From Phyllosticta citribraziliensis (taxonomy: Eukaryota): 51,280 nucleotides of DNA. The DNA lies in assembly GCF_038025025.1 (NCBI RefSeq), contig NW_027117345.1, positions 2,046,001 to 2,097,280 on the forward strand, read 5' to 3'. The notes beneath the pieces are model-generated. The model did not search any database and was not told the origin of the DNA. It saw only the letters and a list, made by a program, of their open reading frames with translations. Within the stretch, counting starts at the first letter, position 1. Every line of letters starts with the position of its first letter. Of the stretch, positions 7,230-51,280 are shown one piece after another. The position numbers were made by a program, and so were the translations under genes.

Positions 7230-8861
7230 ATGGTCCTGGAAACCATTTACGTTGTGCGCCACGGAGTAAGTTGCCCAGCACATTTAATCATGCTTCAGCC
7301 CTATAGAATCAGCGGATCGACAGGGCCCTAGTCCCCGCATCCAACCCATGGCAAGGGACTCGCGATGCCTGCGACCTGCGAGTCTAATTGCAGGGCCTTG
7401 CGACAACACAAGACAGCATGTGCTAACTTGGTGCCGCAATGTCTAGTTCCGCATGAACTGGGTGGTGAACCCAAACACCGGCGAATACAAATCCAACATT
7501 ACCACGACCCCGACCGGCATCCCTTCAGACCCGGCACTAGCAAGCTATGGCGAACAGCAGGCAGCGCAACTGGCCGAGAAGCTGCTGTCGCTAGACCCTC
7601 CCGTCGACGCCGTCTACTCTAGTCCCTTCTACCGCTGCCTGCAGACGCTGAAGCCCACGGCCGAGAAATTGTTTGGGGAGGGAGGTAGACTGGCTGGTCA
7701 GAGCATCAAGGTGGAGAATGGACTTGGGTATGTGGACACCCTCTCCTACCCAGAGCCCAGCGCGCGAATGCTCCAAAACCGCACACAGTGCAGCGCGCGA
7801 ATGCTTCAGAATCGGACGCAGCACAACGCATGGATGCTCCAGGACCGGACGCAGCAGAGCGCGAGAATGCTCCAGGCCTGGACGCAGCACAGCGTGCGAA
7901 TGCTTCATAACCGGACGCAGCACAGCGCGCGAATGCTCCAGGACTGGACACAGCACATCGCGTGGATGCCCCAGGACCGGACGCCATGAATGCTCCTGCG
8001 CTGGATGCATTGCTACGCAGCGTATGAGTGCTCCTAAACTGGACGCAGTGCAGCGCGTGAATGCTCCTGAACGGGATAATGCGCTATGCGCGAATGCTCC
8101 ACCATCGTATAGAGCGCAGCGTGCGAATGCTCCAGAGGCGCACAAAACCATGAATATACAATACAGAGGCTAACAAGTACGCCGGTACAGCGAATTCTAC
8201 GGCCTTGCCCGCTTCGACCACCCCTCACCCGCGCCGCTCGCAGTGCTGTCAACGCATTTCCCCACCCTACTGGATGAGGACTACAACCCGCTGCTCGTGC
8301 CGTCAACCAACGGCGAGTCGATCCCAGACCTCCACGACCGCATCGCATACACGCTGCACCGCGTCATCGAGCAGCTGGATGCTGACCCGCGCGGACCACG
8401 CACGCTGCTCATCTGCACGCATGCCGCCAGCATGATCGCCATTGGCCGCACACTGACGGGCCGCATGCCGCCTGACGAGGGCGAGGAAGACTTCAAGTGC
8501 TTCACCTGCTCGCTGAGCCGCTTCGACCGCCGTGGCACCGCCGGCCAGGTCGACGTCGAGAGGTGGGACGTCAGCAAGCCGCACGACATTCCCCGCGTGC
8601 CTTGGAGAGATGGCCGCGGCGTGGGTGGCGGCTGGGACTGCAAGATCAACGGCGACTGCAGCTTCTTGAGCGGCGGCGAGGAGCGAGGCTGGTGAGTTTG
8701 ATATACTGCCCTTATGCGAGAGTCAAGTTTGCTGACGGCGTCATAGGAAATTCTCCGGCGATGAGGCCTTCTTGACGGATCCCAATGCGTTCAACGACAA
8801 GATCAACACGGGAGAGCCGATCCCATCCACCAGCTCCGCAGCAGACGCGTCCAAGCTGTGA
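7230..8861 (+). CDS. Histidine phosphatase / phosphoglycerate-mutase-family protein (Tfc7/tau55 N-domain-like) ending in SKL; 4 exons (7230-7265, 7447-7727, 8191-8691, 8747-8861)
   Basis: MVLETIYVVRHG|FRMNW...YSSPFYRCLQT...ENGLG|EFYGLARFDHPSP...LLICTHAASMIAIGR...GGEERGW|KFSGDEAF...DASKL*. RHG and distal His catalytic motifs; all introns GT-AG with branch sites. Confidence 0.9.
7758..8142 (+). repeat. Intronic 33-bp minisatellite, about 12 degenerate copies
   Basis: Units start at 7758, 7791, 7824, 7857, 7890, 7923, 7956, ~7985 (shortened), 8018, 8051, 8084 and 8117; consensus about CAGCGCGCGAATGCTCCAGGACCGGACGCAGCA. Confidence 0.95.
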
Positions 8862-10457: not shown

Positions 10458-11671
10458 ATGGCTTTTACCCCCAGAGGTGGACGCGGTGCCCCCCGCGGCG
10501 GTGGAGGTGCCCGTGGAGGGCGCGGCGCTCCGCGTGGTGGAGGCGGTCGCGGCGGTGGTAGAGGTACGATTCTCTTTTTTATTCTGCTCTCCTTTTCCTA
10601 AACTGCGCATCCACCATGATCGTTTCCCCTCTTGAACGAAATTTTTAGGTCCCATCACTGACTATTTGCAGGCGGCTTTGGCGGTGGACGTGGTGCTCCT
10701 CGCGGCGGTGGCCGTGGCGCTCCCAGAGGCGGCGGACGCGGTGGACGTGGAGGCGGCGCTCCTGGTGCCAGAGGTGCGTTCATCCTATGTCTACAGTGTG
10801 AGAGATGGTGCTAATCATCTACTAGGTGGTGCCAGGGTCATTGTCGAGCCCCACAGGCACCAAGGTGTCTTTGTCGGACGCGGAAAGGAAGACTTGCTCT
10901 TGACCAAGAACTTGACTCCCGGCGAGAGCGTCTACGGCGAGAAGCGCATCCAAATCCCCAATGCTGGCGCTGAGAACGCTACCGGTGCCAACGGCGAGTC
11001 GAGCAACACCGAGTACAGAGTGTGGAACCCGTTCAGGTCAAAGTTGGCGGCCGGTATCCTCGGTGGAATGGCTGGTAAGAAGAGAACAACCCGAGGTCTG
11101 CGAAATTGTGAAACTAATGGTGACAGATATCTACATGAAGCCTGGTAGCAAGGTGCTTTACCTTGGTGCTGCCTCCGGAACCAGTGTTTCGCACGTTGCT
11201 GACATTGTCGGCCCTACTGGTGAGTAATTCTGCCATGTACGCATACATCCATGATATTGACCTCGAGTAGGTACCGTCTACGCTGTCGAGTTCTCCCACC
11301 GTTCTGGACGTGACCTGGTCAACATGGCCACTCACCGCACCAACGTCATTCCCATCGTCGAGGACGCCCGTCACCCGCTCAAGTACCGTATGCTTGTCTC
11401 CATGGTCGACGCCATCTTCGCCGACGTTGCCCAGCCTGACCAGGCCCGTATCGTCGGTTTGAACGCCCACTTGTTCCTCAAGCAGGGTGGTGGTGTCATG
11501 GTCTCGATCAAGGCCAACTGTATCGACAGCACAGCACCTGCGGAGCAGGTCTTTGCCCGCGAGGTCCAGAAGCTTCGCGAGGAGCGCATCAAGCCCAAGG
11601 AGCAGCTCACCCTTGAGCCCTTTGAGAGAGATCACGCCATGGTCAGCGCCGTTTACCAGCGTCACGGTTGA
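10458..11671 (+). CDS. nop1: Fibrillarin, rRNA 2'-O-methyltransferase; 5 exons (introns 10564-10671, 10774-10825, 11075-11126, 11220-11270)
   Basis: N-terminal RGG/GAR domain, then [48 protein letters not shown] and [13 protein letters not shown]. Confidence 0.98.
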
Positions 11672-18312: not shown

Positions 18313-20636
18313 ATGTCTACCGACTACACGTACGACGAGCAGGTACGAAGCTACTGCGCGCCAAATCTGGCACTGGATAGATGATAACCGGGGCTCTAGG
18401 GACAATTCTTTCCCTACTTCGTCACCACAATCACTGGCTTGGTCACCATTCCAATCACCATTTCGCTTCTCACCCGCGGCAAAGAGCTTGAGAACACAGC
18501 ACCAAGAATAAAGTCGGAATACGCGCCACAGAACTCGGACCTCATCGACGCTCAGCGGAGGAAGCTATGGAGAAAAGAGCGCAGGCTTGGGAGAATCATC
18601 CTCGCCGTCGCCGGTTGGACCGTCATGGCGTGGATGGTTTACCTCATGGTCGTCACTGCACGGACTGTGCCCAAGATTTGGGATCCTTATGAGGTCCTTG
18701 GCGTGTCGCGAGTAGGTTTGCGCAGAGACCGACAGACGGATGGATACTGACATTCGCAGTCCGCCAACGAGAAGCAAATCAAATCCCACTACCGCAGACT
18801 GTCCCTCACGCTGCACCCCGACAAGATCCAACCGGACCCCGAAAAGAACATTACCATGGAAACGATCAATGACCACTGGGTCGAGGTCACAAAGGCCTTC
18901 AAGACGCTTACGGACGAGGAAGTTCGCAACAACTACTTGCAGTACGGCCACCCCGACGGTAAACAGAGTTTCAGCATCGGTATCGCCCTGCCAAAGTGGA
19001 TCGTCACTGAAGGAAACGGAAAGTTCGTCTTGCTCGCCTACGGTCTGGTCCTGGGAGTTGTGCTCCCCTACTTGGTCGGCAAGTGGTGGTATGGAACTCA
19101 GCGTGTCACCAAAGAAAAGGTCCTTGTTTCGAGCGCCGGCAAGATCTTCAAGGAGTACAAGCCGGAGATGACCCCCGGTAGTGTTTTGCACGCCGTGAGC
19201 ACTGGTACCGAGTTTGAAGAAGTGCTCAAAGGCAACAAAGCGGAGTCGGGTCTATCCAAAATCGAATCCAGCATCTTCAAGGAGGGCGAGCTCTCGCCAC
19301 TGGCCGGGGGACTATCTGTCAAAGATCGCGAGCAATTGGAGAACCTCGAAGAAGGAGCGCGGAGAAAAGCGCTGGCTCTCCTGTGGGCGTACCTTGGACG
19401 GGTAGATCTGGGTGACGCCACACTCAACGCAGGTATGTCTTTGTTGAGACCTCCGTTTCTCCCAAGGCGAGTTGCTGACAGACTACAGAAAAATACGAGG
19501 CCGCTCCCATTGCTTTGGAGTTGAACGAATCCTTCCTTGCCACCGCGCTTGCGTATGGCAATATCGTTGCCATCCTGGCGTCTTACCGCACATCGCAATG
19601 CTTGATTCAAGCAGTGGCGCCCAGCTCATCACCGCTGCTTCAACTCCCTCACTTCACCCCTTCTGTTGTTCGCTCGATTGAGGGATCCAGCGCAAGGGCG
19701 CATATGTCTGTACAAGAGTTCATGGGCCTCGCATCGCAAGAGAGGCGCAAGCGTGCAATTGGCTCTGGTCTCCTCAATGACAGTCAATTGACTGCCGCCG
19801 AGAAGGTGGCGACGCAACTTCCATTCCTGCGCGTAGACAAGGCTTTTTTCAAGGTTGTTGGAGAAAAGTTCATCACTCCCGGTAGTCTGGTTCAATTCGT
19901 CGTCAAGGCTCGCCTCATTCCTCCCGGCTTCCAAAACGTACCCGAAATCACCGAGAAAGATCTTGCCGACTCTGATCCCAAAGAGGGCGACCTGGACGCT
20001 CTTCATGGCCGCAAGAAGGGTGTCGAGGCCGAGGAGGCGAAGAAGGCCGAACTTGCTGGCCAACCTCCTCTCGCACACGCTCCCTACTTGGCTCGCGACC
20101 ACTCCCCCCGATGGCACGTCTTCCTCGGCGACAACAGGCAGGGCAAGATTGTCGTCCCGCCTTTCACCTTCACCAAGTTCGACAAGCCGCTTTTCGACGA
20201 GGCAGGAAACCCGACTTACAACGTGCAAACGCTTAAGATGCAATTTGGCGCCCCGCCGCAGGCTGGCCAGTACAGATTCACAATGTACATGGTGTGCGAC
20301 AGCTACGTTGGCATGGACACCAAGATGGACGTGACGTTGAGCGTGGACGAGGCTTCCAAGGCCGCGGAGATTGAGGAAGAGGAAGAGATTAGCGAGCCAG
20401 AAGAGGGTAAGTCGCCATCCTCACCACACCGTCCGACTACAAAAACAGCAGTAGCAGCTTTGGCTAACACCATTCCAGATTCGCTGGCAGGCCAGATGAA
20501 CGCGCTCAAGGGCGGCGAGACCAAGAAGCGCAAGTCGGCGGCCGCCGACGTCGACGACTCGGACGAGAGCGAGACGGACGAGGACGAAACGGATGACAGC
20601 GAGACGGACACGGAGACGGACACGGACGAGGAGTAG
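18313..20636 (+). CDS. sec63: ER translocon J-domain protein Sec63; 5 exons (introns 18343-18399, 18712-18759, 19433-19488, 20407-20478)
   Basis: MSTDYTYDEQ|GQFFPYF; three TM segments; J domain WDPYEVLGV...LHPDK...YLQYGHPDGKQSFSIGIALP; Brl/Sec63 domain; acidic tail DTDTDEE. Confidence 0.97.
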
Positions 20637-21626: not shown

Positions 21627-23047
21627 TTATTGCTTGAGGAGCTGTGTCAGCTCCGCAGCAACGGCGTCGCCGACCTCGCTGGTGGAGTTGGAGCCGCCAA
21701 TGTCGGCGGTGCGGATGTTGTTGTCAATGACGTTCTTCACGGCCACGTCGACGGCCTTGGCCAGCTCGGGCAGGCACAGCGAGTACTTGAGCATCATGCT
21801 GATGGAGAGGATGGAGGCAATGGGGTTGACAATGCCCTTGCCGGAGATGTCGGGAGCGGAGCCTATTTCAAATTAGTTGCAAATAAGGACGGGACGATTG
21901 GTGAGTAGATGTACCGTGGATGGGCTCGTAGATGCCGTTGACCTTGGTCTTGCCGTCAGGAATGGCGCCAACACTGGCACTGGGCAGGAGACCCAGGCTG
22001 CCGGGGATGACGCTGGCCTCGTCGGAGATGATGTCGCCAAAGAGGTTGCTGGTGACGATGACGCCGTTGAGGGCCCTGGGGTTCTTGACCATCAACATGG
22101 CGGCCGAGTCGATGAGGTGGTGGCCAAACTTGAGCTGCGGGAACTCCTTCTCCATGACCTCGGTGAAGACCTTTCTCCACAGGCGGCTGGTGGCCAGGAC
22201 GTTGGCCTTGTCCAGACTCCAGACCGGAGCCGGCGGGTCCTCCTGCAGCGCCAGCGTCGCGGCTAACCGCGTGACGCGCTCAATCTCGGGGCGCGAGTAG
22301 GGCTCCGTGTCCATGGCAAACCCGCTGCCGTCGTCCTCCTTGCGCTCTCCAAAGTAGATGCCGCCCGTCAGCTCGCGGATGATGTTGAAGTTGGTGCCGG
22401 CAGCGACGGATTCCTTGAGGGGCGAGATTTTGACGAGGGATTCGGACGCGAAGAAGCAGGGACGCAGGTTTCCAAACGTTCCCATTTCCTTGCGGAGCTT
22501 GAGGATGCCCTGTTCCGGGCGGACCTTGCCTGTGCCCCATTTCTGCACGCTTGATCAGCCCACCTGTGCTATTCGAGAGATCGTGGGGAACTCACGGGTC
22601 CACCGATGGCTCCAAGGAAGACGGCGTCGGCGGATTTGGCGGCGGCGAGAGCTTCGTCGGTAAGGGGGCTGCCGGTGGCATCAATTGAGGCCTGGCATTG
22701 TGTTAGCCAGAGTGAACGCAAGTGGGAGGTTTAGTTTCTTCTTTCTTACACCTCCAAGCAGCTGATTGTCGAAGTTGAATTGGATTTCTGGCTTCGCCTT
22801 TTGAATGGTTTGGAGGATCTAGTCGAATGAGCAGGAGCTTCGGATATACCATGGGGAGCTCAATGGTACCTTGAGAGCCTCGGTAGTGACCTATGGAGCT
22901 GCAATTAGCATTTGTAAATAAGATGCGGGGCGCGAAGAGCTCACTTCGGGACCGCAGTGGTCACCTGTGGACAAAATCAGTAGGTGGCCCTTGGAACTTC
23001 AGCGAGGACAACTCACCGGCAAAGACGACAATGTTGAAGGAAGGCAT
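21627..23047 (-). CDS. leu2: 3-isopropylmalate dehydrogenase; 7 exons (23047-23017, 22964-22945, 22890-22870, 22818-22750, 22691-22596, 22542-21915, 21862-21627)
   Basis: [24 protein letters not shown]|...[24 protein letters not shown]...[13 protein letters not shown]...[25 protein letters not shown]...[19 protein letters not shown]. Confidence 0.97.
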
Positions 23048-37592: not shown

Positions 37593-37702
37593 TCAGCCCA
37601 TCCCGTTGCCCGGCTGCCCCGGCCTCCCCATGCCGCCCTGCCACATACCGCCCATGCCGCCCATCTGGCCCATCATCTGCTGCTGCGGGTGGCCCTGCTG
37701 GC

Positions 37703-37737
<35 letters not shown>

Positions 37738-40651
37738 TGCTGATTGCGCTGCGCCAACATCTGCTGCTGCCGGATGAGGCGCGCCATGTACTGCTGCTGA
37801 GCCTGCTGCTGGTCAGGGGTGGTAGCACCGCCGGGGACGCCGTTGGGAGGGCCACCGCCAGGGCCTTGACCGGCGCCGCCGCCGCCGCCGTTTTGCGCTT
37901 GCTGCTGCGCTTGTTGCTGGTGCGCGACGGCCTGCGCGGCTTGCTGCTGCTGGAACTGCATCCGCCGCATGAGCTCGAGCTGCTGAGCCATGTTCATGTT
38001 GCTGTTCATGCCCGCCGCCGTGTTGCCCTGCGGCCCGCCCTGGCCGGCGGCCGCGGCGGCGCCCGACGTCGCCATGCCGTTCATGTTCATGCCGCCCATG
38101 TTCATCTGGCCCATGTTGCCCATGGCGCCCATGTTCATGCCCGGGCCAGCGCCGCCGCCGTTGGGTTGGTTCATGTTGTGCTGCTGTCCCTGATTCTGTT
38201 GCGCCTGCTGCTGCTGGATCTGGCTCAAGACCATCTGCCAGGCCCGCATGATGCCCTGGTTGCCACCCTGCTGTATCAACTGCTGGATTTGCGGAGGGAC
38301 GTTGGGGGCGCCGCCGAAATGCTGGACCATCTTCATAATGATCCGCTCCCGTTGTTGCTTTGCGCGGAGCTCCTGCTGCTGTGGTGTCATCTGCATGGCG
38401 GGGTTGGCCATCATCGGATTTGTTTGGTTTGGAGGCCGTTGCTGGACGCCGTTGGGTGTGGCACCTGCGACCTGGCTCATTTGGTTGCGCATTTGTTGTT
38501 GTAGCTGGATGTTGTACGATGTCGGCGCCGAGTTCTGTCCTCCATGATTCTGCGCTTGCGCCATTTGGTTCTGCGCCTGCATCTGAGCCATGTGTTGTTG
38601 ACGCAATATTTGCAGCTGCTCGTGCGTCACGTTTTGGGGTGATCCGCCGTTGCCCATCGCATTTTGCTGCTGCATGCGTCGCATCTGCTGGAGCCTGGCG
38701 AATTGCTCGTGCGTCATCCCGTTGGGCAATTGCGGAGTGCCGTTCATCATCACTGGCGTACCCTGCATGCCCATGGGGCTGCCGTGTTGATTTACTCGGC
38801 CGGGCTGAGGCGTCATGTGGCGTGTGACGGGAACTGCTTGGCCCATTTGTGGCGTGCCTTGGACCATTTGTGGTGTTCCGTGAGCGCTGCCTGGGTGTTG
38901 GCTGCTTTGCTGGCGCGACATTTGACGAGCCATGTGTTGAGCGCCAGCGGAGTGAGGAAGGGCCGAAGGCGGACGTGGCGGACTGCCAGCTTGACTCGAA
39001 GATGTTGGAGCCATTGGTACGCCTCCCATGGCATGAGTCGCGACAGCATTGGCATTGATGACCGGCGACGCCTGCATCGGAGTCTGATGCCGGACCATGG
39101 GAGAGTTTTGCGGAGGTTGTGACAGTTGCATCGGGTGTTGTTGGGATCCCATCATGTTGCCGGAAGCCTGTGCGGCCGCAGCTTGAGCACGGCGGACTTG
39201 CTCTTGCTGCTGCAAAGCGTGCTGACGTTGCTGTTCCTGTTGTTGGGCCATGAGCCGGTGCTGCTCGGCTTGCTGTTGGTGTTGATTAGCGGCTTCCCTC
39301 TCCCTCTGGCGCGCCTCAACGGCCTGCTGCTGCTCTCTCTTGAGCTGGGCTTGTCGGGCTTCCTCCTCCTTTTTGAGCCTTTCGGCTTCCTCGTGTTGGA
39401 TCTTGATGTTTTCAAGCGTTTTGAATCGCGAGAAGCGTGGCTCAAAGGTGGCTGCTCCACCACGGAGGCCTTCGCCATCGCCATTCATCTGGCCAGACCC
39501 TGTAGCCGGTGCCGAGCTATCGCCAAACAGCATGAAATTCTGGTCGGCGTTGAATTGCGCCTCGTCCGCGGCCAGTTCTGCTGTCGTGCGCTTGCGAGTC
39601 TTGGGTGCCGGCGGAGGATTCGTGTTAATGGGATGAGTGGTTGCTTCGATGAGGTTCACAGTCTCTGCCAAGCTGTGGGAAGGTTCGAGGTAGAGCGCGG
39701 GTGCGGTGGAGTTGATGACCTCGGCCTCAAAGGCGTGGATATTCGATTCATCGAGTATCATTCTTTGTCGCTTGGCGGGTCGTCCCAAGGAAGGCGTCGG
39801 CGGTACAGACGTTATCGGGGTAGGTGGATGTGCGGACATGGGAGTTTGAGCCGTCCTCGCCTGTTGCCTCCGACTGTTCAGGTCGGGCATTGGGGTAGTG
39901 GCCAGGAGCTCAATCTCTAAGTGGCGCGAGAGTTGAGTGGGAAACAGAACCTTGACTGATATTTGTGGGCTTTTGGGGCCAGCCTTTGCAATATCCTGCG
40001 AGGCTTCTTTCTTTTCTTTGCATGGTTGGCTTCCCGAGGAACTTGGTCGCTTTTCGATCTTGGTTGAGTTGGCTGTTGGAGGAGAAGGATAAGGGACAAA
40101 TGGAGAGGGGGTGAGGTGGTCATTCCAGTTGTGGATCGAGCCGGGTATCGTGTTGTCCTTCTTCTGGTTGGCAATCTGTGCGCCTGTTGGAGGCTTGACG
40201 TCGGCGACACGGTGATTGACAATCTGTACTATCAAGCAACCATCGTAGAATTGCACCCCAGCCTTGAGCATCTCCTCGAGCATGAAGTGGGGCACAGTAC
40301 CGTCCCGTAGATGTTGAATCAGCGCCTTCATGGGCGAGTTGTAGGGAAAATTGCCGTCTTGATGTTCGAAGCGAAAGTGGTGTTGGTGGAGATGGATGAT
40401 GAGCGACGGTGAGTTGCCCCTGAACTTCTTCAGAATGTATTCCTCGGTGATGACTGGTCACGGTGAGTTGAAGCCGGGGAAATGTGAACGGGCAACATAC
40501 CGTATGGCTTCTCCATCACCTTGTCGGCAGTAACGGCACTGTCGGCCTCGTTATGTGCGATCCTAGTGCTGCTCCGAAGCTGCGACGGGCGTTGAGACTC
40601 GCGGCGCTGGCGAAGGGCCTGCGAAGGACGGATGGGAGCTGCGGTCGACAT
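37593..40651 (-). CDS. spt20: SAGA complex subunit Spt20; 2 exons (40651-40501, 40453-37593)
   Basis: KPY|VITEEYILKKFRGNSPSLIIHLHQHHFRFEHQDGNFPYNSPMK...VPHFMLEEM...FYDGCLIVQIVNHR (Spt20 domain), RKRTTAELAADEA, FEPRFSRFKTLENIK, and a long Q/M/G-rich tail. Confidence 0.92.
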
Positions 40652-41646
40652 GGTGGCGACTGTGGAGAGGCAGTGGTTTCGCGCGACGTGGTCGCGATGG
40701 TTGTTTAGGTTGCGATGGCGCTCACATGACACGCGTGCGGCGGTCGGTCGGTCAATCGGAGTTCGAGGGACGTTGGGAGAGGTTTTGAGGGTACGCGATC
40801 ACGGCAAAGGAAGTCTTGAAGTCGATGAGGGCGAAAGAATGCGATGAACGGGGATGGTGTTGGTGAGAGGCGACATCAGGATCACCGCGAGGAGGTGCAT
40901 GCGCGGTAGGCCAGGCTGGGCAACGCGGAGGCGGCAACGGGCCCGCTCCGGCCTTGGCCGAACCGAACCAAAGTGAAGTGGAGCTGACCGCCCAGTCGGA
41001 ACTTGCAACTTCACATCCAAACGCATGTATTCTTCACAACCCACACTCTATTCAAATCCACCTCAGATTATAACAACATAATGATTAAGGAATTATATAA
41101 AATTAACTATTTAGCCACCTATTCTTACCTTTAGTTAAGTATTAATATACTTAATAAGGTATCTTCTAAGAAACTACTACTCTTTATCCCTCCTAATAGG
41201 CTAACCCTCTATTCTAGACTAAAAACCTAGTCCTAAATACTAGCTAACTCTACCTATATACCTTCTCCCTCTATAGCTAATAGTCTCTAGCTCTAAATTA
41301 AATAAGCTATAGTTAATAAGATTAAATACCTTAAAAAGGGTTAGGAACTTTTCTACCCTTTTCTTTCTATCTTAGACTAGTACTATAAGGCTTAGCCCCT
41401 TATCCTAACTAAGGGGCTTACTAATAATAATAAGAGGGTCCTCTAGGCTCTTTTTAATAATCTTTCTACTATTACCTACTACTACTATATAGTATATACT
41501 TAATATAAAGACCTAGGTAAATATATACCTATTATATCTAGCTCTACTACTTCTAGTAGTATAGGTAACTATACCCCTCCCTTAAGTATAAACTCTATAG
41601 CTAAGATTAGAGGTAATATATATACCTAGGCTATTAAGTATAGTAC

Positions 41647-42069
41647 TATCATAATAGGCGTATACGCGCCTATACAAGTACCAGGGCCAGTATAGATAAA
41701 CCTAGCATTATATAGTTATAAGAAGTACAAGCCTCACCTTAGGTAGTAGCCTACTATAGCTTAGGCTAAAACCTATAGGCTAGTACTAGCTACTATAGCC
41801 TAGTACTAGCCACTATAGCCCTAGGTAGATACTATATAATAGCCTATTAATACCTTACCTTTATAACTTACCTAATAATAACTAAGGACCCTTATATAAA
41901 GGATAAGAGGTAGAATAGTATAAAGAAAGGACTAGGAAATATATAGGTAATAAGTATCTTTTATATTTTATTCTTTTAACTTATTAGATTTAATTAAGAT
42001 ATATATATATTCTTTAGTAGTTTACCTTTAACCCTTACCTATATAATAAGAAATCTATAAGTTATAATA
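41647..42069 (+). repeat. 5' LTR
   Basis: Direct repeat of 49432-49854; the differences I checked are all C/T or G/A transitions; TG...CA termini are RIP-converted to TA...TA. Confidence 0.95.
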
Positions 42070-43649
42070 GATATAAAAGATTATTCTAAGTTTTAGCTCT
42101 ATCCTACTTCTTTACCTATAAAGGTATTATAATATTTAACCTAAGTAATATTATATATAGCTATAGTCTTATATAAGACTACTTATTACTTTTCCCTAGT
42201 AAACCTAAGTTATCTTTATTAGGTATATTAGTATTATCTAAGGACTAAGGAGTATTAAGTATATATTAACTATAGAAGTCTTTAGTTAAGGCTATAGGGT
42301 AGTATATAAATATCTAGGAGGTATCCTATCTATAACCTGCTTAAGGGATATTCTAAGTAGAAGACTATAAAGATAGTATAGCTAAGAATAAAGCTAATAT
42401 ATCTAGTACTACTAAAGGTATTAGTACTAGTTAATTAACTTAATAAGATTTATATAAAGGGACTAAAGATTTATATAATACTAGATACTTATTAAATAAT
42501 AATAAGAGGGGACCTACCCCTATTCTCTTATATAATTTCTACTTAGTCCTAGTAGTAGAGGTAAAAGAATATACCTAAGACCTAGGGTTAACTTATATAG
42601 TTTAAGCTCTAGTTATAGAGGTATTTATAAAGGTACTATACTTAGATATTAATTAATTTAAATCTAAGATTATATCCTTAAATAAGTCTTAAGTATAGTA
42701 GCAACTAAACTATATATAAAGGTAGAACTAGGCTCTTAAGTAAATACTCTTAAACTATACTAATAGACTTAAGGAAGTTCTAAGGGAAGGATATATTAGG
42801 CCCTCTTTATTAGCTTAGTACCTAAGACCTATTATTCTTAAACCTCCTCCTAACTATATAGGGGAAACTACTACTAAAACCTCTACTTTATCTTTAAATA
42901 GTAAAAAATACTATAATAGTAAGGTTCCTAATCCTCCTCTTCTTACTAATAGAGAAGACCCCTTATATAAATACTAGACCCTCCTTATATAAAATAAAAT
43001 TAAATAAAACTATAATTACTTTACTAAAGATATAGTAGAGGAGACTAAATAAAATATTATAGGTTATATTATTTCCTATATTAGTAGAGAAGTCTTATAT
43101 TATCTAACTCCTTTCCTTACTTCTTATATAAAGGCTAATAAAGTTACTCTAAATAAGGATATCTTTAAATTCCTAGATAACCTCCTCTAGAGCCTATATA
43201 AATATAAGGATATAAAGAAGTAGTTATACTCTCTTATATACTATATTCCTATAGACCTTTAGAAGTTTTAATTAAACTTTATATAATTAGCCTTAGATAT
43301 AGATCTTTCCTAAGAATAGTAAAAAGAGGACTTTTATAATATAATAGATCCTCTCCTTTAAACCTATATAGTTACTATAGAGTAAGATAAGGATATTAAC
43401 TTTTATAAGTACCTTTAATAAGCCTACCCTATTACTTAAAGTCTTAGTAACTACTATTCTAATTATAGAAAACTAATACTTATATTGTATAAGGAATAAG
43501 TAAAGAAGAGATAATAAGAAAGAGTAAAGATAACTACCTTAGGTAGTATAAGTACTTTATCTTCTAGTTATACTTAGGTATAATCTATATCTAGGGCTCC
43601 CTTATATAATATAACCTGTAAAGGTAAAGTAGAAGTCTATATAGAGATT

Positions 43650-46600
43650 AGACTGTATAATTACTATGGCTAGTTTAGCTATTTATAGAGATAATACCTA
43701 TAACTAGAGATAAAGGTAATAGAGTTAGTTAAAGAAGAAAGTACTAAAGATGTCTATATAAATAAAGGAGATTAGTCTTTATTAGAAAATAATAAGACCT
43801 AGGTAAAGTCTCTAGCTATAGGTCTAAACTTAGAGTAATATATATTAAGGGTTCTTATATAAATCTTAGTTACTTTATTAGAGGTGTACCCTTTACTGTA
43901 TGAACCTTAATTATATCTAATAGCTATACCTTAGAAATTTATGCCCTAGCTAATACTAGTACTAGTAGTATAAGTTTTATTTACCCTAAGCTACTACTAA
44001 CTCTCTAGTCTATAGGTGCTGTAAAAAAGAGAATAATAGGTAAAGGGCTTAATATTACTAGGTTTAACTAATATATAAATAAGAAAGTTAATTTTTACTT
44101 TTATCTTTAACTCTATTTCTAAGATTAAATGGTTTCTACTTATGCTTTTATTTATAATATTAGCCATAATAATATGATTCTTAGGTAATAGTTTTTTAAC
44201 TAGTATAATATCCTTCTAGACTATAAATAATATAAACTAGTCTAGAGATAGCTACTAGTTAACCAGTCTTTTTAGTATCTTTTATAACTACTAAAAATCT
44301 CTATATAAAGTAAAGAACTATAGAAAGAATACTAAGTAGATATAGACTATAGAGATAAAAAATTTAATAAACGCCTTCTTCCCTCTATATAGGTTATTAA
44401 GGGAATTAAATTCTAAACTTAAGATATATTTAAGCTTTCTATTTATAAAATATAAGTTGTACTAATAGAGATCTATACTATTAACCTTATATAAGTCTAA
44501 GTAGCTATTAAAGATAAGGAAACTAAGGAATTACTAGCTTCTAAGCTACTAGCTACTTATAAGGAATTTTAAGATATATTTTCTAAAATAGAGTCTAATA
44601 AGCTACCACCCTATTATATAGGAGTTAATTATAAAATATCTCTTATATATAATAGTCTACTAGAGCTTCTACCTAGTCCTCTTTATAGAATATCTCTAGA
44701 GCAGCTTAAGGCTATAAAAGAGTATATTATTAAGAACCTTTAGAAAGGCTTTATTACTAAGAGCTTTACTACCTATACTTCTCCTATTCTTATAGTAAAA
44801 AAGCCTAGTAGGGGATAGAGATTTTATATAGACTACTAATAGCTTAATAAATAAACTACTAAGGATTTATACCCCCTCCCTCTTATTATAGAGTTACTTT
44901 AGCGCATTAGAAGGGGTAAGATTTATACTAAGCTTAATATTTAATAAGCTTTCTACTATATTTATCTTACTAAGGATTCTAAAGATAAAACTACTTTCTA
45001 TATAAGATATAGGTTATTTAAATACTATATCTTACCTTTTAGATTAAGTAATAGACTAGTAGCCTTTTAATATTTTATTAACTAGGTTCTCTTTAAGTAT
45101 TTAGATAATTTTATTATAGCTTTTATAGATAATATACTTATTATCTCTAAAGACCCTATAGAGTATAAGGAATAAGTAAAAAAAGTACTAGTAAGACTAT
45201 AAAAAGTAGGACTATAGGTAGATTTAAAGAAGAGTAAGTTTTTAGTTACTTATATAAAGTTCCTTAGATATATTATTTCTATAGAAGGTATTTAGATAGA
45301 CCTAGATAAAGTAGAACCTATATAAAACTAGCTAATACTAAAAACCCTTAAAGCTCTTTAATCCTTCCTAGGTTTCTATAATTTCTACTAATAATTTCTC
45401 CCTAACTATAGATAAATTAGCTGACTATTAGAGAAACTATACTCTAAGGTAAAATAGTAATAACTAGGACCCCTAGAAGAAGAGGTAATTTAGTAACTTA
45501 AGAAGCTAATATATAGTAATATACTCCTAGCTAATTATAACCCTACTCTTAATACTTATATAGAGACTAATATAAGTAATAGAGTTACTATAGGTGTTTT
45601 AATATAGCTCTAATAACCTTTATATAATTAGAAACTAGTAGCCTTCTACTCTAAGGTAATGGCTGATATAGAACTTTATTATAGAATTTTAGATAAAGAA
45701 CTACTAGCTATTAAGAATAGACTAGAAGAATAGAGACTAATACTTATTAGCCTTAAAAAACCTTTTCTTATAATTATAGACTATTAGGTATTAGAGTACT
45801 ACTCTACTAAATAATAACTTAATTAATAATAAGCTAGATAGTCTAAGTTTTTTATAGAATTCTATATATAATTCTCCTATTAACTAGGAAAGGAAAATAT
45901 TATTATTAATTACTTTACTTAAAAATAAGAAGATCTAAAGACTTAGAAAGAAAAAGTAAAGGCTATATAAGAGATATACCTTATCCTATTAGAGACTATT
46001 ATCCCTCTTTCTATTTTAGAATAAGAACTTCCTCCTCTAGTATTATTTTTAGATAAACTTCTCTATATAAACTAAGAAGATTCTAAATTAGAATTCTAGA
46101 GATAGAAAGCCCTCTTAAAAGACCTTAAATAAAGAAATAGTTAGGAACTAAAGGATGGTCTTTTACTATAATATAGTACCCTCTTTATACTAGATTATAA
46201 TAACCTTTGCGCGAGAATACTTAATACTTTATATACTACCTATATAACTACCTATCCTAGTATTATAAAGATGTAAAAACTCCTTAAGTAATATTACTAC
46301 TAGTTAGCCATGAATTATATGATTAATATTTATAGGTGAGGATACTATATTTACTACTAAATAAAAGAGTTTTATAATAAAGACCTAGGCCTTTTATAAC
46401 CCCTAGAGATTCCTACTTAACCCTGGTAATACCTAGCTATAGATTTTAAAGAGATACCTAAAGACTAAAAAGGCTATAATATAATCCTAGTTATTATAGA
46501 CTAGTTAAGTTAAAGAACCTTTAGCTTACCTTATATAAAGAAGATTAATATTAAAGGAGTCTCTAGGCTCTTTTATAAATATATCTACTATATTTATAGA

Positions 46601-47625
46601 AACCCTAAGTTTATCCTATTTAACTAAGGCCCTTAGTTTATCTTAGCATTTATAAATAAACTATATAAGCTAACTAGTATAGAGTAGTATTTTAACTCAT
46701 CCTACTACTCTTAGACTAATAGTATTATAGAGATTATTAATTAGTATCTTATATAAAGATTAAGACCTTTTATTAATTACTTTTAGAATAATTAGTCTAA
46801 TCTTCTACTATTAATAGACCTTATATAAGTAATACTTCCCTATAAAGCTACTAGACTTTTACCCTTTAAGATTAAGTTAGGATATTCCCCTTAAATATAC
46901 TATAACTAGTAATAATAAACTAAGACCCCCTAGTAACTAGAAAAGATAGCTTATATAGTAGTATAAATGCTATAAAAAAGAAGATAAGAAGCTTTTAAAT
47001 TTATAAAGAAACTTATTCTTAAATCCTAAGAGTATATATACTAATAAGCTAATAAATACTATTATATACTAGACTTTATAGTTAGAGATTATATCTATAT
47101 TAAGAAAATAGGATGGTCTACTAATTAGCTAAACCTTAAATTAGACTTCCCTAATACTAGACCTTTTAAGATTATAGGAATAGAAGGATCCTCCTATATC
47201 CTTAATCTTCCCTTATATATAAAGATAGTTAACCTTTTCTATACTAATAGGCTATATAAGGCTAAACTAGAATAGCTTCCTAGTTAGGAATATACTAAAC
47301 TAGAACCTAAGATTATTTAAGATAAGCCTAAGTAGGAAGTAGACTATATTTAAGCTAGTTAAGTCTTATATAGGAAGCTTTAATATTAAGTTAAATAGAC
47401 TAGATATAACTAAGATAACTAGTAGTATAATATAAGTTCTTTTAGTAGTATACTATAGAAAATTAAAGAATTCTACTTATTATACCCTACTATAGTAGGA
47501 CTACTAAAAAATCTAGAAAAATAGAAGACTGCCTTCCTCTAAGAAGAACTATAGATTAAAATAGAAAGTAATAATAAAATAAGTTACTTAGGCCTATAGT
47601 AAATATTATAAAGATATAGAAAGTA
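43650..47625 (+). pseudogene. RIP-mutated gag (3' end) and pol
   Basis: De-RIP readings: C-x2-C-x4-H knuckle ~43655; protease ALADTGA 43943; RT PFGLSNGPAAFQ 45035 and F(V/I)DDILI 45122; RNase H ETDAS 45563 and DKELLAI 45692; integrase PWQHLAMDF 46421 and DRGPQF ~46620; chromodomain EWEVD...KLQYQVEW...EFH...GPP ~47320-47510. The gag start was not resolved. Confidence 0.9.
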
Positions 47626-49000
47626 GACTAATTAATTTACTATCTACCCTTATATAAATACTATTAACCTTAACTTCTACTCTCTAGTCTCTTCTTTTTA
47701 CTACTTATCCCCTACTTCCCTCTTCTTTACTTTCTACCCTTTACTTCCTTCCTTTTCCCTTCTTCTTATTATAACTATTATTATATAAGATAGTCTCCTC
47801 TAGATCCTCTAGCTTATTAGGTAGGATATTCTACTTAGCTAAAGCCTAATTAGTTTAATCCTCTACCCTAGCTTAGTAGTGTAAGTTCTAGAACTCCTCT
47901 ATATAAATTTTATCTTTATACCTCTTATAATAAGTAGGTAGCTTAGCACCCTTTAAGTTACTAATAGTATAGTCTAAGTTACCTATACCCTAAAGGCAGT
48001 TAGTATAGCAGCCCTATAAGAAACTAGGTAGGTAGTAATAACTAATAAATATATAAGTATTAGTATTATTATAATACTTAGTATAGCTAATAGGGTTATT
48101 AATTCTAGTATACTAGATAAGAAAAGTATTATATAAGCTAGCTTAAGTTTTAACTAATAAGTAGTTAAATTACTAAGTAGAAACTATAATATATAAGTAA
48201 GGTATACTATTACCTAAGGCTAAGATATACTTAGCGCGCTCTTATACTTTAGAACTACTAAGGTATACCTATATAGTTAGTTAGATAAGAATCCCTTATA
48301 TTAGTAAGATAAACTTACTTATATAATACTCTCTATATTCTTATAAGGGATATAAAGCATTAACTTAAAGTCCTACTTAATAGGTACCTTATTAGAGCTA
48401 ACCAGTAATACTATAACGCAAATCTTACTATTACTGCTATTATATAAAGTAGTAGGTAGTAAGTACTTAGCTACTAGAACCTAATAAGCTATAGGATTAT
48501 AATAATAGTATATATAAATAGGCTCTTTACCTTCTTCCTCTAAAATAGGCTGCGTAATAGTGAACTAGTAGTAATGTAGCATAATAGGCTAGTTAGTAGC
48601 AGGCTATATAGCTATAGATGATAAACCTTATAAATAACTAATAATACTAATTAAGTAGAACCTAATACTATAGTATACTATAGGTAAAGTAATAAGCCTA
48701 TAGCTAGTTCCTGGCTAAATAAGTAAAGCCTAGCCTAACTAAGTCTTTATATAAGTATCCTCCTCTATAATTATATTAGTTAGCAAGACGGGATAATAAA
48801 GTAGTAAAACCTAGATATATATACTACTTAATAGCCTGGATAATAATTAGTAATAGTCTAAGAGATAGAATTAAAGTTTACTTACCTTAGGACTCTATAT
48901 AATAGTCCTTATAGATACTACTAGCTAAAATAGCTCTCTAAGTAAGTAGTAACTATAATAGATTATAAATAATACTATATAATAATAACTTAATACTATA
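47620..49000 (-). pseudogene. RIP-mutated antisense accessory ORF with DUF3716-like six-Cys domain; candidate intron 48885-48836; boundaries approximate
   Basis: Minus-strand frame 48148-47969 de-RIPs to RASxxNAFLIQxTG...C-x2-C-x8-F-x2-C-x2-LPGF-x2-GCCANCLW-x6-C; the same frame gives KKKGKGRK at 47767. Confidence 0.7.
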
Positions 49001-49431
49001 ACTCTTATATAATAGTAATAAGTCCTAATAGACCAGACCATAATAAGTAGTAGATATATTAAGTATATAGTAGCTAGGAATATCTACTTTACTATTAGTA
49101 GGGTATAAATTATTTAAATTATTAGAACCTTTATATATAATAGTTAGTTTACTAGATTATAGCTAAATTAGACCAGGGTAATAATATACTTTAATAGGGA
49201 GCTTTAGATATAGCTAAATAAGATAGTAACCTTCTATAGGTCATATAGTAAAAGAGATAGTAATAGAAAAAGAGATAGTATAGTAGTAGCCCTAGACTAA
49301 TAATTATACTTTATAACTATACAGAATACTTAAATTACTAAATCACTACTATTATACATTATAAGTCTACACCTATATAAGTACCTATAGCTACTAATTC
49401 CTATAATTTCAGCTTCTCTTTAGGGGGGGCA

Positions 49432-49854
49432 TATTATAATAGGTATATACATGCCTATATAAGTACTAGGGCCAGTATAGATAAACCTAGCATTATATAG
49501 TTATAAGAAGTATAAGCCTTACCTTAGGTAGTAGCCTATCATAGCTCAGGCTAAAACCCACAGGCTAGTACTAGCTACTACAGCCTAGTACCAGCTACTA
49601 TAGCCCTAGGCAGATACTATATAATAGCCCATTAACACCTCACCTTTATAACTTACCTAATAATAACTAAGGACCCTTATATAAAGGATAAGAGGTAGAA
49701 TAGTATAAAGGAAGGACTAGGAAATATATAGGTAGTAAGTATCTTTTATATTTTATTCTTTTAACTTATTAGATTTAATTAAGATATATATATATTCTCT
49801 AGTAGTTTACCTTTAGCCCTTACCTATATAATGAGAAATCTATAAGTTATAATA
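49432..49854 (+). repeat. 3' LTR
   Basis: Follows the polypurine tract; same length as the 5' LTR; followed by the AGTAC duplication. Confidence 0.95.
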
Positions 49855-51280
49855 AGTACTAACTAGATAACCCCTACTAAAACTTAGGGATAATAGGCTC
49901 CTTAAATATTAAAATTAGCCCTTCTATACTAGCCTAATAATTACCTCTTTATCTATCTTAGTATAGACTACCCCTAATATAGGGTAGACTTCTATACTAT
50001 TATACTCTAGCTCTATAGCCTTCTAGGTACTAATAGTAAGCTAGTTAAGGAAGTAAACCCTATTAAGATAGGTTTTACTCTTACCCCTTCTACCTCTACT
50101 AATATACTAGTAGTAGCCTTTAAGGCTATTAAACTAGAGTTAAGGGATTATCTTAAGTACTATAAGATTAAGTAGGTCTTTTTATAGCTAGCCTTTTAGC
50201 TACTATATATTCCTAAGTATTATATAGGCTTAGATACTAATAACTACCCTATACTAAAGGAAGTCCTTCTTTAGGATATTATTAATACTATCTATAATAC
50301 TATAGGTATTTTACTAATAAATATTACTATATCTATAACAATCTAACTAGATATTTATAGTACTAATTTAGGTATAAGAGTTATCCTATTACTTAGGCTA
50401 TCTATATAGCTAAAGTACCTATCCCCTATAACTACTAAGCTTACTAAGCTTACCCTTAATATCTAATAGCTATACTAGATCCCTATAGGATCTACTACTA
50501 TAGGTAGTAGCTAAAGTAGTTTATAAGTAACCTTACCTATATCTACTATCTATTCTTAATCTATACTCCTAAATCTATAGACCTAATCTATATAGTAATA
50601 AAAGGAAAGGAAAAAATAGGGGAAGGCTTTACTTATTATTATTATCTATTACTATCTACTCTAAAGTCTTATTCTATTTACCCCTATTATCTAAGTAGTA
50701 GATAGCCTTAATATCCTACTTTACCCTAACCTTAGCTATAGCCTTATTATCCTAGGATTACTTACTACTTAAGTACTTAGATTCTAACTAATTAGTAATA
50801 TTAATTACTCTATTACCCTTAGTTTATCTATAGACCTTATATACTATATTATAAATAGCCTTATATATAGTACTATCCTTATTCTAGGTAATATTATTAG
50901 TATTAGACTTATCTTCCTTATTAAATAGGTTAGTTAGGGCTAATATCTTATCCTTAAGGTTAATAACCTCCTTATTATCTATTATACTAAGGTAACTAGT
51001 AATCCTATATTACTTAAGACTTAGCTTATTAGGGTCTAGCTTAGTTCTTATAATCTACTTCTTCTTAGGCTTAATTATAATTATAGGGTTCTTAGGATCC
51101 TTAGTCTTAGGATCCTTATTATTAGGACCCTTATTACTAATAGTTTTTAAGCTATACTAGGGTTTACTATCTATACTAGATCTAGGTATACTAGTAAATA
51201 TACCCTAGTATTATAGTATTAGTATTATAATACTAGATTTACTAGATATTAGGGTAGATAGGGAGCTAGGATAAAAGTAT

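Follow-up and report, generated by a model that had tools for sequence, protein, structure and literature searches.

Antisense open reading frames (ORFs) located between pol and the 3′ long terminal repeat (LTR) have been described in maize Grande (gene23), rice RIRE2, Silene Retand, and Phaseolus PvRetro13 (excerpts of PMC7264820; see also PMC11963269), and the proteins encoded by these plant aORF-3R genes are nuclear in some cases. Among fungi, the chromovirus Boty (BcGypsy1) of Botrytis cinerea and Sclerotinia sclerotiorum carries an antisense gene, brtn, a report attributed to Zhao et al. 2011 (Virology 417:248) as cited in passages of PMC7264820, PMC8365987, and PMC4227169. Extra ORFs of LTR elements are drawn in Figure S1 of PMC8365987, and PMC7264820 discusses gene transduction and nested insertion as origins for such ORFs. 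In view of these antisense extra ORFs, brtn of Boty included (excerpts of PMC7264820 and PMC8365987), the statement in the initial annotation of the locus described here that canonical gypsy elements encode only gag-pol is too strong. Direct term searches of the literature found nothing on antisense ORFs of fungal LTR retrotransposons, and a term search of Muszewska 2011 returned no mention of antisense ORFs.

A second group of systems concerns the protein family DUF3716 (PF12511). REP9, an IS3EU class II transposon of Zymoseptoria tritici, contains two DUF3716 genes (excerpt of PMC8232023). The Fusarium DUF3716 protein PSC58 has been called an orthologue of Neurospora NCU05718 (excerpt of PMC10776026), which binds double-stranded TTAGGG repeats directly (excerpt of PMC4650311). 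In these sources, this DNA binding is the only experimental indication of the activity of a DUF3716 protein, and the DNA-binding domain of NCU05718 is unmapped. Our literature searches found no link between DUF3716/PF12511 and LTR elements. VANC of the Arabidopsis VANDAL elements is an accessory protein of a plant DNA transposon with demonstrated anti-silencing activity.

The locus considered here is a Ty3/gypsy chromovirus in a window of 51,280 nucleotides from Phyllosticta citribraziliensis (the window being the whole stretch of DNA analyzed). Like Boty, it is a fungal chromodomain Ty3/gypsy element, and its candidate extra gene lies in antisense orientation in the interval from pol to the 3′ LTR. 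Unlike brtn, which is known from intact, transcribed copies, the Phyllosticta element is a mutated relic only, and its host belongs to the Dothideomycetes, whereas the hosts of Boty are Leotiomycetes. The plant aORF-3R elements share with it the position and orientation of the ORF and a long spacer from pol to the 3′ LTR, but they belong to plant, mostly non-chromovirus lineages, and no sequence relation to them is claimed. REP9 is likewise a mobile element of a Dothideomycete carrying DUF3716 genes as passengers or accessories; it differs in being a DNA transposon rather than an LTR retrotransposon, and its DUF3716 genes were assigned on intact proteins. NCU05718 differs in being a host gene and not transposon-borne. 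VANC resembles the candidate antisense protein in that the latter would also be a transposon-encoded accessory protein, but VANC belongs to a plant DNA transposon, and nothing in the Phyllosticta element bears on silencing.

A RIP-saturated chromovirus and the spacer after pol

Positions 41647 to 49854 of the window form a single complete Ty3/gypsy chromovirus insertion, saturated with repeat-induced point mutation (RIP) (Table 1). It has a pair of LTRs (93% identical over the first 300 nt), a target site duplication (TSD), a polypurine tract (PPT), reverse transcriptase (RT), RNase H, and integrase in that order, and a C-terminal chromodomain. Pfam matches to RVT_1 and RNase H were found solely in the pol frame, the five other frames giving no match, and there was also no Pfam match in the sequence 3′ of the 3′ LTR. 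BLASTP aligned 407 residues of pol, 24% of them identical, with a natural Tf2-type pol (a protein with rve, PF00665, and Chromo, PF00385; E = 2e-23). The alignment spans the integrase core and the chromodomain up to the last residues of the Tf2-type protein, and because it runs to that C terminus, the end of pol can be placed at about 47576 to 47620. With the G-run at 49423 to 49429, this agrees with the initial annotation in leaving some 1.8 kb between the end of pol and the PPT. The presence of an unusually long spacer between pol and the PPT, in a chromodomain-bearing Ty3/gypsy element ruined by RIP, is thus supported.

Table 1. Features of the chromovirus insertion and of the candidate antisense frame (window coordinates)
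Feature	Position	Strand	Basis or comment
TSD AGTAC, 5′ side	41642..41646	.	Abuts 5′ LTR; identical 5 bases past 3′ LTR
5′ LTR, 423 bp	41647..42069	+	Alignment with 49432-49854
gag-like coding signal, frame other than that of pol	42550..43750 (about)	+	Frame +1 top score, pol-trained codon model
pol, codon starts 41948+3k	43750..47600	+	Pfam, BLASTP; frame +0 top score throughout (codon model)
RT within pol	44795-45271	+	Pfam RVT_1 5.2e-13
RNase H within pol	45476-45859	+	Pfam RT_RNaseH_2 5.6e-10, RT_RNaseH 3e-9
Integrase core and chromodomain within pol	46400-47575	+	BLASTP to natural Tf2-type pol
Spacer of about 1.8 kb, pol end to PPT	47620..49420	.	Positions of pol end and G-run
Best coding-like segment of antisense frame	47663..47974	-	Codon model; holds KKKGKGRK (47767-47744) and purine-rich tract
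Candidate Cys-rich motif, 39 codons	47969..48085	-	2 real Cys (48010, 47998) plus 5 TAT, possible former Cys
Polypurine tract region, G-run 49423-49429 (seven G)	49421..49431	+	Directly 5′ of 3′ LTR
3′ LTR, 423 bp	49432..49854	+	Alignment with 5′ LTR
TSD AGTAC, 3′ side	49855..49859	.	Directly after 3′ LTR

For the Spt20 gene flanking the element, identity is 98% with the gene of Phyllosticta citrichinensis, 85% with that of P. citriasiana, and 72% with that of P. capitalensis, which identifies the host as a Phyllosticta. Near position 41000 the composition of the window shifts abruptly, the GC content falling from 51-62% to 24-31%. Just upstream of 41001 the TpA/ApT ratio is 0.33-0.37 and the (CA+TG)/(AC+GT) ratio is 1.18-1.59; from 41001 on, the same indices are 1.70-1.93 and 0.00-0.26. 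These dinucleotide indices are the signature of saturating RIP, with an excess of TpA and a depletion of CpA/TpG that are limited to repeated DNA. Stop codons make up about 10% of the codons in every frame of the element. The chromovirus copy is dead, killed by RIP, and nothing in the copy at 41647-49854 is functional.

Other copies of the element were recovered as contigs of public sequencing runs from other organisms (referred to here as X1, X5, X8, and X10). Divided into 30 bins, the stretch was covered in 30 bins by contigs of X1, in 29 by X5, in 26 by X8, and in 13 by X10, the uncovered bins of X10 being uninformative, and contigs of X5, X8, and X10 bridge the junction between the end of pol and the spacer near 47620. 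Just two joints were seen, both within one X5 contig, where 94 and 103 bases are skipped; none connects sequence across the entire spacer. Differences between copies are mainly transitions (155 of 166 places in X1). Since the spacer is covered, its junction bridged, and transitions predominate, it belongs to a RIP-affected family of multiple copies and does not represent a private insertion. A search for nested-element ends gave no convincing terminal inverted or direct repeats bounding the spacer segment, and comparison of the spacer with the rest of the window, including its other degraded repeats, gave no similarity. None of the public sequencing runs contains half of the words of the window, and no RNA run is among those listed. 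IUPAC patterns allowing both RIP states, one made from the motif described below and another from the LTR, found no copy in metagenome or prokaryote genome contigs.

The antisense frame and its candidate cysteine-rich motif

The candidate frame is read from the minus strand with codon starts at 49429-3k, and the candidate antisense ORF (48130-47660) lies, like an aORF-3R, between the end of pol and the PPT on the strand opposite to pol. Its plain translation from 48130 is NTFLI*YTRINNPISYTKYYNNTNTYIFISYYYLPSFL*GCYTNCL*GIGNLDY, with NKKKGKGRK* further on. The minus-strand codons quoted in the initial annotation, from AAT ACT TTT CTT ATC TAG TAT ACT AGA through GGC TGC TAT ACT AAC TGC CTT TAG to GAC TAT, are present letter for letter, except that the AAT codon starts at 48130 and not at 48133, and the two unmutated TGC codons at 48010 and 47998 and the KKKGKGRK stretch from 47767 in the same frame are where they were said to be. 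The frame is closed in this copy, where 11 of its 171 codons are stops. That count falls in the lower 3.5% of wrong-frame windows; the median per 170 codons, however, is 18 stops for the true frame of pol and 19 for wrong frames, and stop density is therefore useless as a test of frame.

The proposed six-Cys domain is present as the spacing [C/Y]-x2-[C/Y]-x11-[C/Y]-x10-[C/Y]-x2-C-x8-[C/Y] (48085-47969, minus strand), but with only two real Cys codons, and it may have arisen by chance (see the shuffles below). The five other “Cys” positions are TAT codons, four of them within the six-Cys spacing and the fifth being the second Cys of the “CC” pair. Across the 20,556 codon positions of the six frames of 41001-51280, this exact [C/Y] spacing is found a single time, with its two real Cys residues in C-Y-T-N-C. 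It had been proposed that reverting only RIP transitions restores the Cys residues. This does not hold, the choice among ancestors being free: a TAT codon can derive from CAT, from CGC, or from a true Tyr codon, and Cys is one of several possible reversions. At a loose end in X5 (two contigs, at 48056) the sequence is CGCGCG, compared with TATATA at 48050-48055 of the window, and the Tyr codon at 48055 was therefore formerly Arg, not Cys, in the light of that copy. Among the 40 variant places listed, of 257 in all, none falls in the putative Cys codons, and a T-to-C variant at 48127 restores GCT, as reversal of RIP predicts.

Tyr accounts for 9.0-11.0% of codons in all six frames of the element DNA. 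When the 10.3 kb was shuffled 200 times with its dinucleotides preserved, 173 of the shuffles contained a loosened six-[C/Y] pattern, and 44 contained this loosened pattern with a real Cys in one or more anchor positions. The exact [C/Y] spacing arose in only 1 of the 200, but this spacing was defined post hoc from the observation itself. The survival of the two TGC codons also needs no selection, since both lie in a GpCpA context on the plus strand and CpA escapes mutation more often there (5.7% after G compared with 1.6-2.6% after other bases, a difference of about 2- to 3.5-fold). Overall, the six-[C/Y] pattern does not clearly exceed chance.

A codon-usage model, trained to tell the reading frame of the mutated pol from the five wrong ones, was cross-validated in both directions and each time identified the correct frame for 9 of the 10 held-out windows. 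In windows across 47500-48399 the model prefers the same antisense frame as the initial annotation. This frame scores 6.3 and 9.4 bits in the windows within 47500-48099; four of the five other frames are negative in the first of these, the exception being +2 at 5.2, and all five are negative in the second. From 48100 to 49400 none of the six frames is positive. The maximal segment of the antisense frame (47974-47663) reaches 12.1 bits, compared with null 95th percentiles of 10.4 (wrong frames within pol) and 11.3 (shuffles) and null maxima of 14.5 and 17.1, and a plus-strand frame nearby reaches 11.0 bits. The source of the score is the purine-rich tail and not the Cys motif. The antisense coding signal is thus weak and borderline, lying within the null range.

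Homology searches with this frame returned no relatives. Pfam searches at E values up to 10 gave no family, either with the plain antisense reading or with TAG and TAT codons masked as X, and Zn_clus had no match on the antisense reading. A phmmer search of 1.84 billion representative proteins with a 603-aa antisense reading gave nothing at E up to 0.001, and a word-indexed search with a 203-aa reading gave 22 word-sharing candidates, none at E up to 10, both queries being RIP-mutated. These blanks are almost weightless, because Pfam also misses the integrase and chromodomain that BLASTP reveals: the rve, Chromo, and gag models gave no match at E up to 10 on the readings of this very copy. The PF12511 model (59 positions, cut-off 22 bits) would not be expected to fire here, because its information sits in Cys columns that are Tyr in this sequence. 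Profile searches are blind in RIP-saturated DNA, and hits or blanks on a single saturated copy are untrustworthy, since even the integrase of the element is missed. As a protein query, the mutated pol found four distant proteins and no close intact relative, and a search of viral contigs with the natural Tf2-type pol gave no relative. The 145 open frames of at least 110 codons in the flanking 41 kb included no DUF3716 gene, and 14 control genomes contained no PF12511 member.

Competing explanations for the spacer

The reading we favor, at a probability of about 0.4, is that the spacer holds the relic of a real antisense Cys-rich ORF of the aORF-3R type. In its favor are the anatomy of the element and its RIP indices, the occurrence of the spacer in runs from three further organisms, the choice of this very frame by the codon model, the single occurrence of the exact [C/Y] spacing, the variant that restores GCT, and the precedents of Boty, the plant families, and REP9. 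Against it are the lack of any homologue, the borderline coding signal and its origin in the tail, the 44 of 200 shuffles with a loosened motif, the sequence context that accounts for the surviving TGC codons, the uninformative stop density, and the TAT that derives from CGC in another copy. A competitor of almost the same probability takes the spacer as a long, non-coding 3′ untranslated region in which a polypyrimidine/purine tract lies beside pol, and the six-Cys pattern as a forking-path artefact. The abundance of Tyr in every frame (9.0-11.0%), with free choice of which TAT to call Cys, the ease with which shuffles produce the loose pattern (173 of 200, or 44 of 200 with a real Cys), a coding score within the null range, the absence of any positive frame in 48100-49400, and the lack of homologues by Pfam, phmmer, and word-indexed search all fit this explanation. 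Fungal LTR elements are usually compact, however, so 1.8 kb of pure spacer would be unusual; the motif lies in the preferred frame of the codon model and in the spacer rather than elsewhere; and the exact spacing appears in just 1 of 200 shuffles, though judged post hoc.

If the motif does reflect a former Cys-rich domain, the family to which it belonged can be read in more than one way, and the additional Tyr positions permit alternative Cys assignments, such as the Zn2Cys6-like cluster C-x2-C-x6-C-x15-C-x2-C-x8-C. The loop of a Zn2Cys6 cluster is usually 5-12 residues long; the 15-residue loop required here exceeds that range, and with no match to Zn_clus we regard membership in another Cys-rich family of this kind as very improbable. 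The Cys-rich piece might instead be foreign, having come from part of a host DUF3716 gene or from some other transposon, such as one like IS3EU/REP9, that was captured by or nested in an ancestor of the element and was carried as a passenger rather than as a working gene. There are precedents, in that DUF3716 genes ride on a Zymoseptoria DNA transposon (excerpt of PMC8232023) and gene transduction and nested insertion have been discussed as sources of extra ORFs (excerpt of PMC7264820), and the 1.3 kb upstream of the piece has no coding signal. Against this, the segment lacks bounding terminal inverted or direct repeats, no contig skips it, and it has no similarity to the other degraded repeats of the window, so that we consider a foreign origin improbable, if less so than the Zn2Cys6-like assignment.

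The proposed antisense gene and DUF3716

If the spacer does hold the relic of an antisense Cys-rich ORF, an ORF of the aORF-3R type would once have followed pol, and its 3′ half would correspond to about 48130-47660. The product may have been a small protein in which a Cys-rich, probably metal-binding domain (48085-47969) preceded a basic/acidic tail, and the 1.3 kb left toward the 3′ LTR would have supplied the promoter for a transcript converging on pol. By analogy with the DUF3716 relatives NCU05718 and the REP9 genes, the likeliest job of such a product would be nucleic acid binding in the service of the element. The motif has been likened to the Cys pattern of DUF3716, which we take to have this spacing. 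Membership of the candidate in DUF3716, suggested by this resemblance, is less likely than the existence of an antisense Cys-rich ORF as such, and the central claim of the initial annotation, that an antisense DUF3716 gene once existed here, is plausible, though not proven. The nuclear, Zn-binding, and anti-silencing role, like that of VANC, that had been proposed for the protein is pure speculation.

The broader proposal is that DUF3716 may be, at least in part, a transposon-borne accessory DNA-binding protein, and that one lineage of Dothideomycete chromoviruses had an antisense gene for it after pol and before the 3′ LTR, as a fungal counterpart of aORF-3R. We hold this to be unlikely, though it deserves more weight than a foreign origin of the Cys-rich piece. 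Two of its components are already known, namely, an antisense extra ORF in a fungal chromovirus (brtn of Boty) and DUF3716 genes on a transposon (REP9), and the Boty brtn precedent removes most of the surprise. If true, the proposal would nevertheless supply a domain identity for an antisense retrotransposon gene, which the plant examples lack, and would connect the uncharacterized DUF3716 family with mobile elements of two transposon classes. DUF3716 would then become testable as a nucleic acid-binding accessory factor, and the REP9 genes, the telomere-repeat binder of Neurospora, and LTR elements would be linked in a way that suggests a role for the family in the targeting of integration or in the control of the element's own transcription.

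Genomic setting of the element

The GC-rich part of the window (7447-40457) carries ordinary fungal genes, among them a gene for Spt20 with 98% identity to Phyllosticta citrichinensis.

Genes of the GC-rich flank, with positions in the window
Gene	Position	Strand
Histidine phosphatase	7447-8692	
Fibrillarin	10636-11668	
DnaJ-domain gene	18751-19521	
Isocitrate/isopropylmalate dehydrogenase	21871-22554	minus
Cytochrome P450	35165-36709	
Spt20	37596-40457	minus

Within 40000-41650 there is a sharp compositional break at about position 41000, where GC content falls from about 57% to 24-31% and dinucleotide ratios that had been normal give way to RIP indices. About 650 bp of RIP-type DNA precedes the 5' LTR, and the chromovirus therefore lies within an older degraded repeat block. 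RIP-type DNA also continues beyond the 3' LTR (49855-51280), and here a codon-usage model trained on the mutated pol of the element scored the minus strand of 50650-51249 at about 20 bits and the plus strand of 49900-50349 at about 10 bits. These scores suggest that another degraded element lies there; a Pfam search of all six frames of 49855-51280 gave no match. Both LTRs contain a 20-bp tandem repeat of 2.3-2.4 copies (41773-41820 and 49560-49605).

Sequence context and targets of RIP

Across the element (41647-49854), a CpA preceded by G has survived 2-3.5 times more often than one preceded by any other base. Among copies of the same element family, found in contigs of public sequencing runs from other organisms, CGC varies with TAT at 48417-48419 and CGCGCG with TATATA at 48050-48055. 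CpG sites have therefore been mutated in addition to CpA.

Reading frames and profile searches in mutated DNA

According to the pol-trained codon model, a gag-like signal (42550-43900) and pol lie in different plus-strand frames, with the switch at about 43750-43900, representing either a programmed frameshift or an indel. The third plus-strand frame reads VYRCCKKE, a possible zinc-knuckle remnant with two genuine Cys codons (44017 and 44020). Directly past the end of pol, a tract at 47680-47770 is purine-rich on the minus strand and pyrimidine-rich on the plus strand. This tract gives rise to the KKKGKGRK reading and drives the codon score of the antisense candidate, the minus-strand frame between pol and the 3' LTR, and it could equally well be non-coding low-complexity sequence.

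In 45860-47620 of this copy, Pfam detected neither integrase nor chromodomain at E values up to 10, whereas BLASTP against a natural pol recovered both (E 2e-23), and alignment to that pol made RIP-type changes visible, such as AYHPETDG to SYYS*TNS. The contrast between the Pfam miss and the BLASTP match is a useful warning about profile searches of RIP-saturated DNA.
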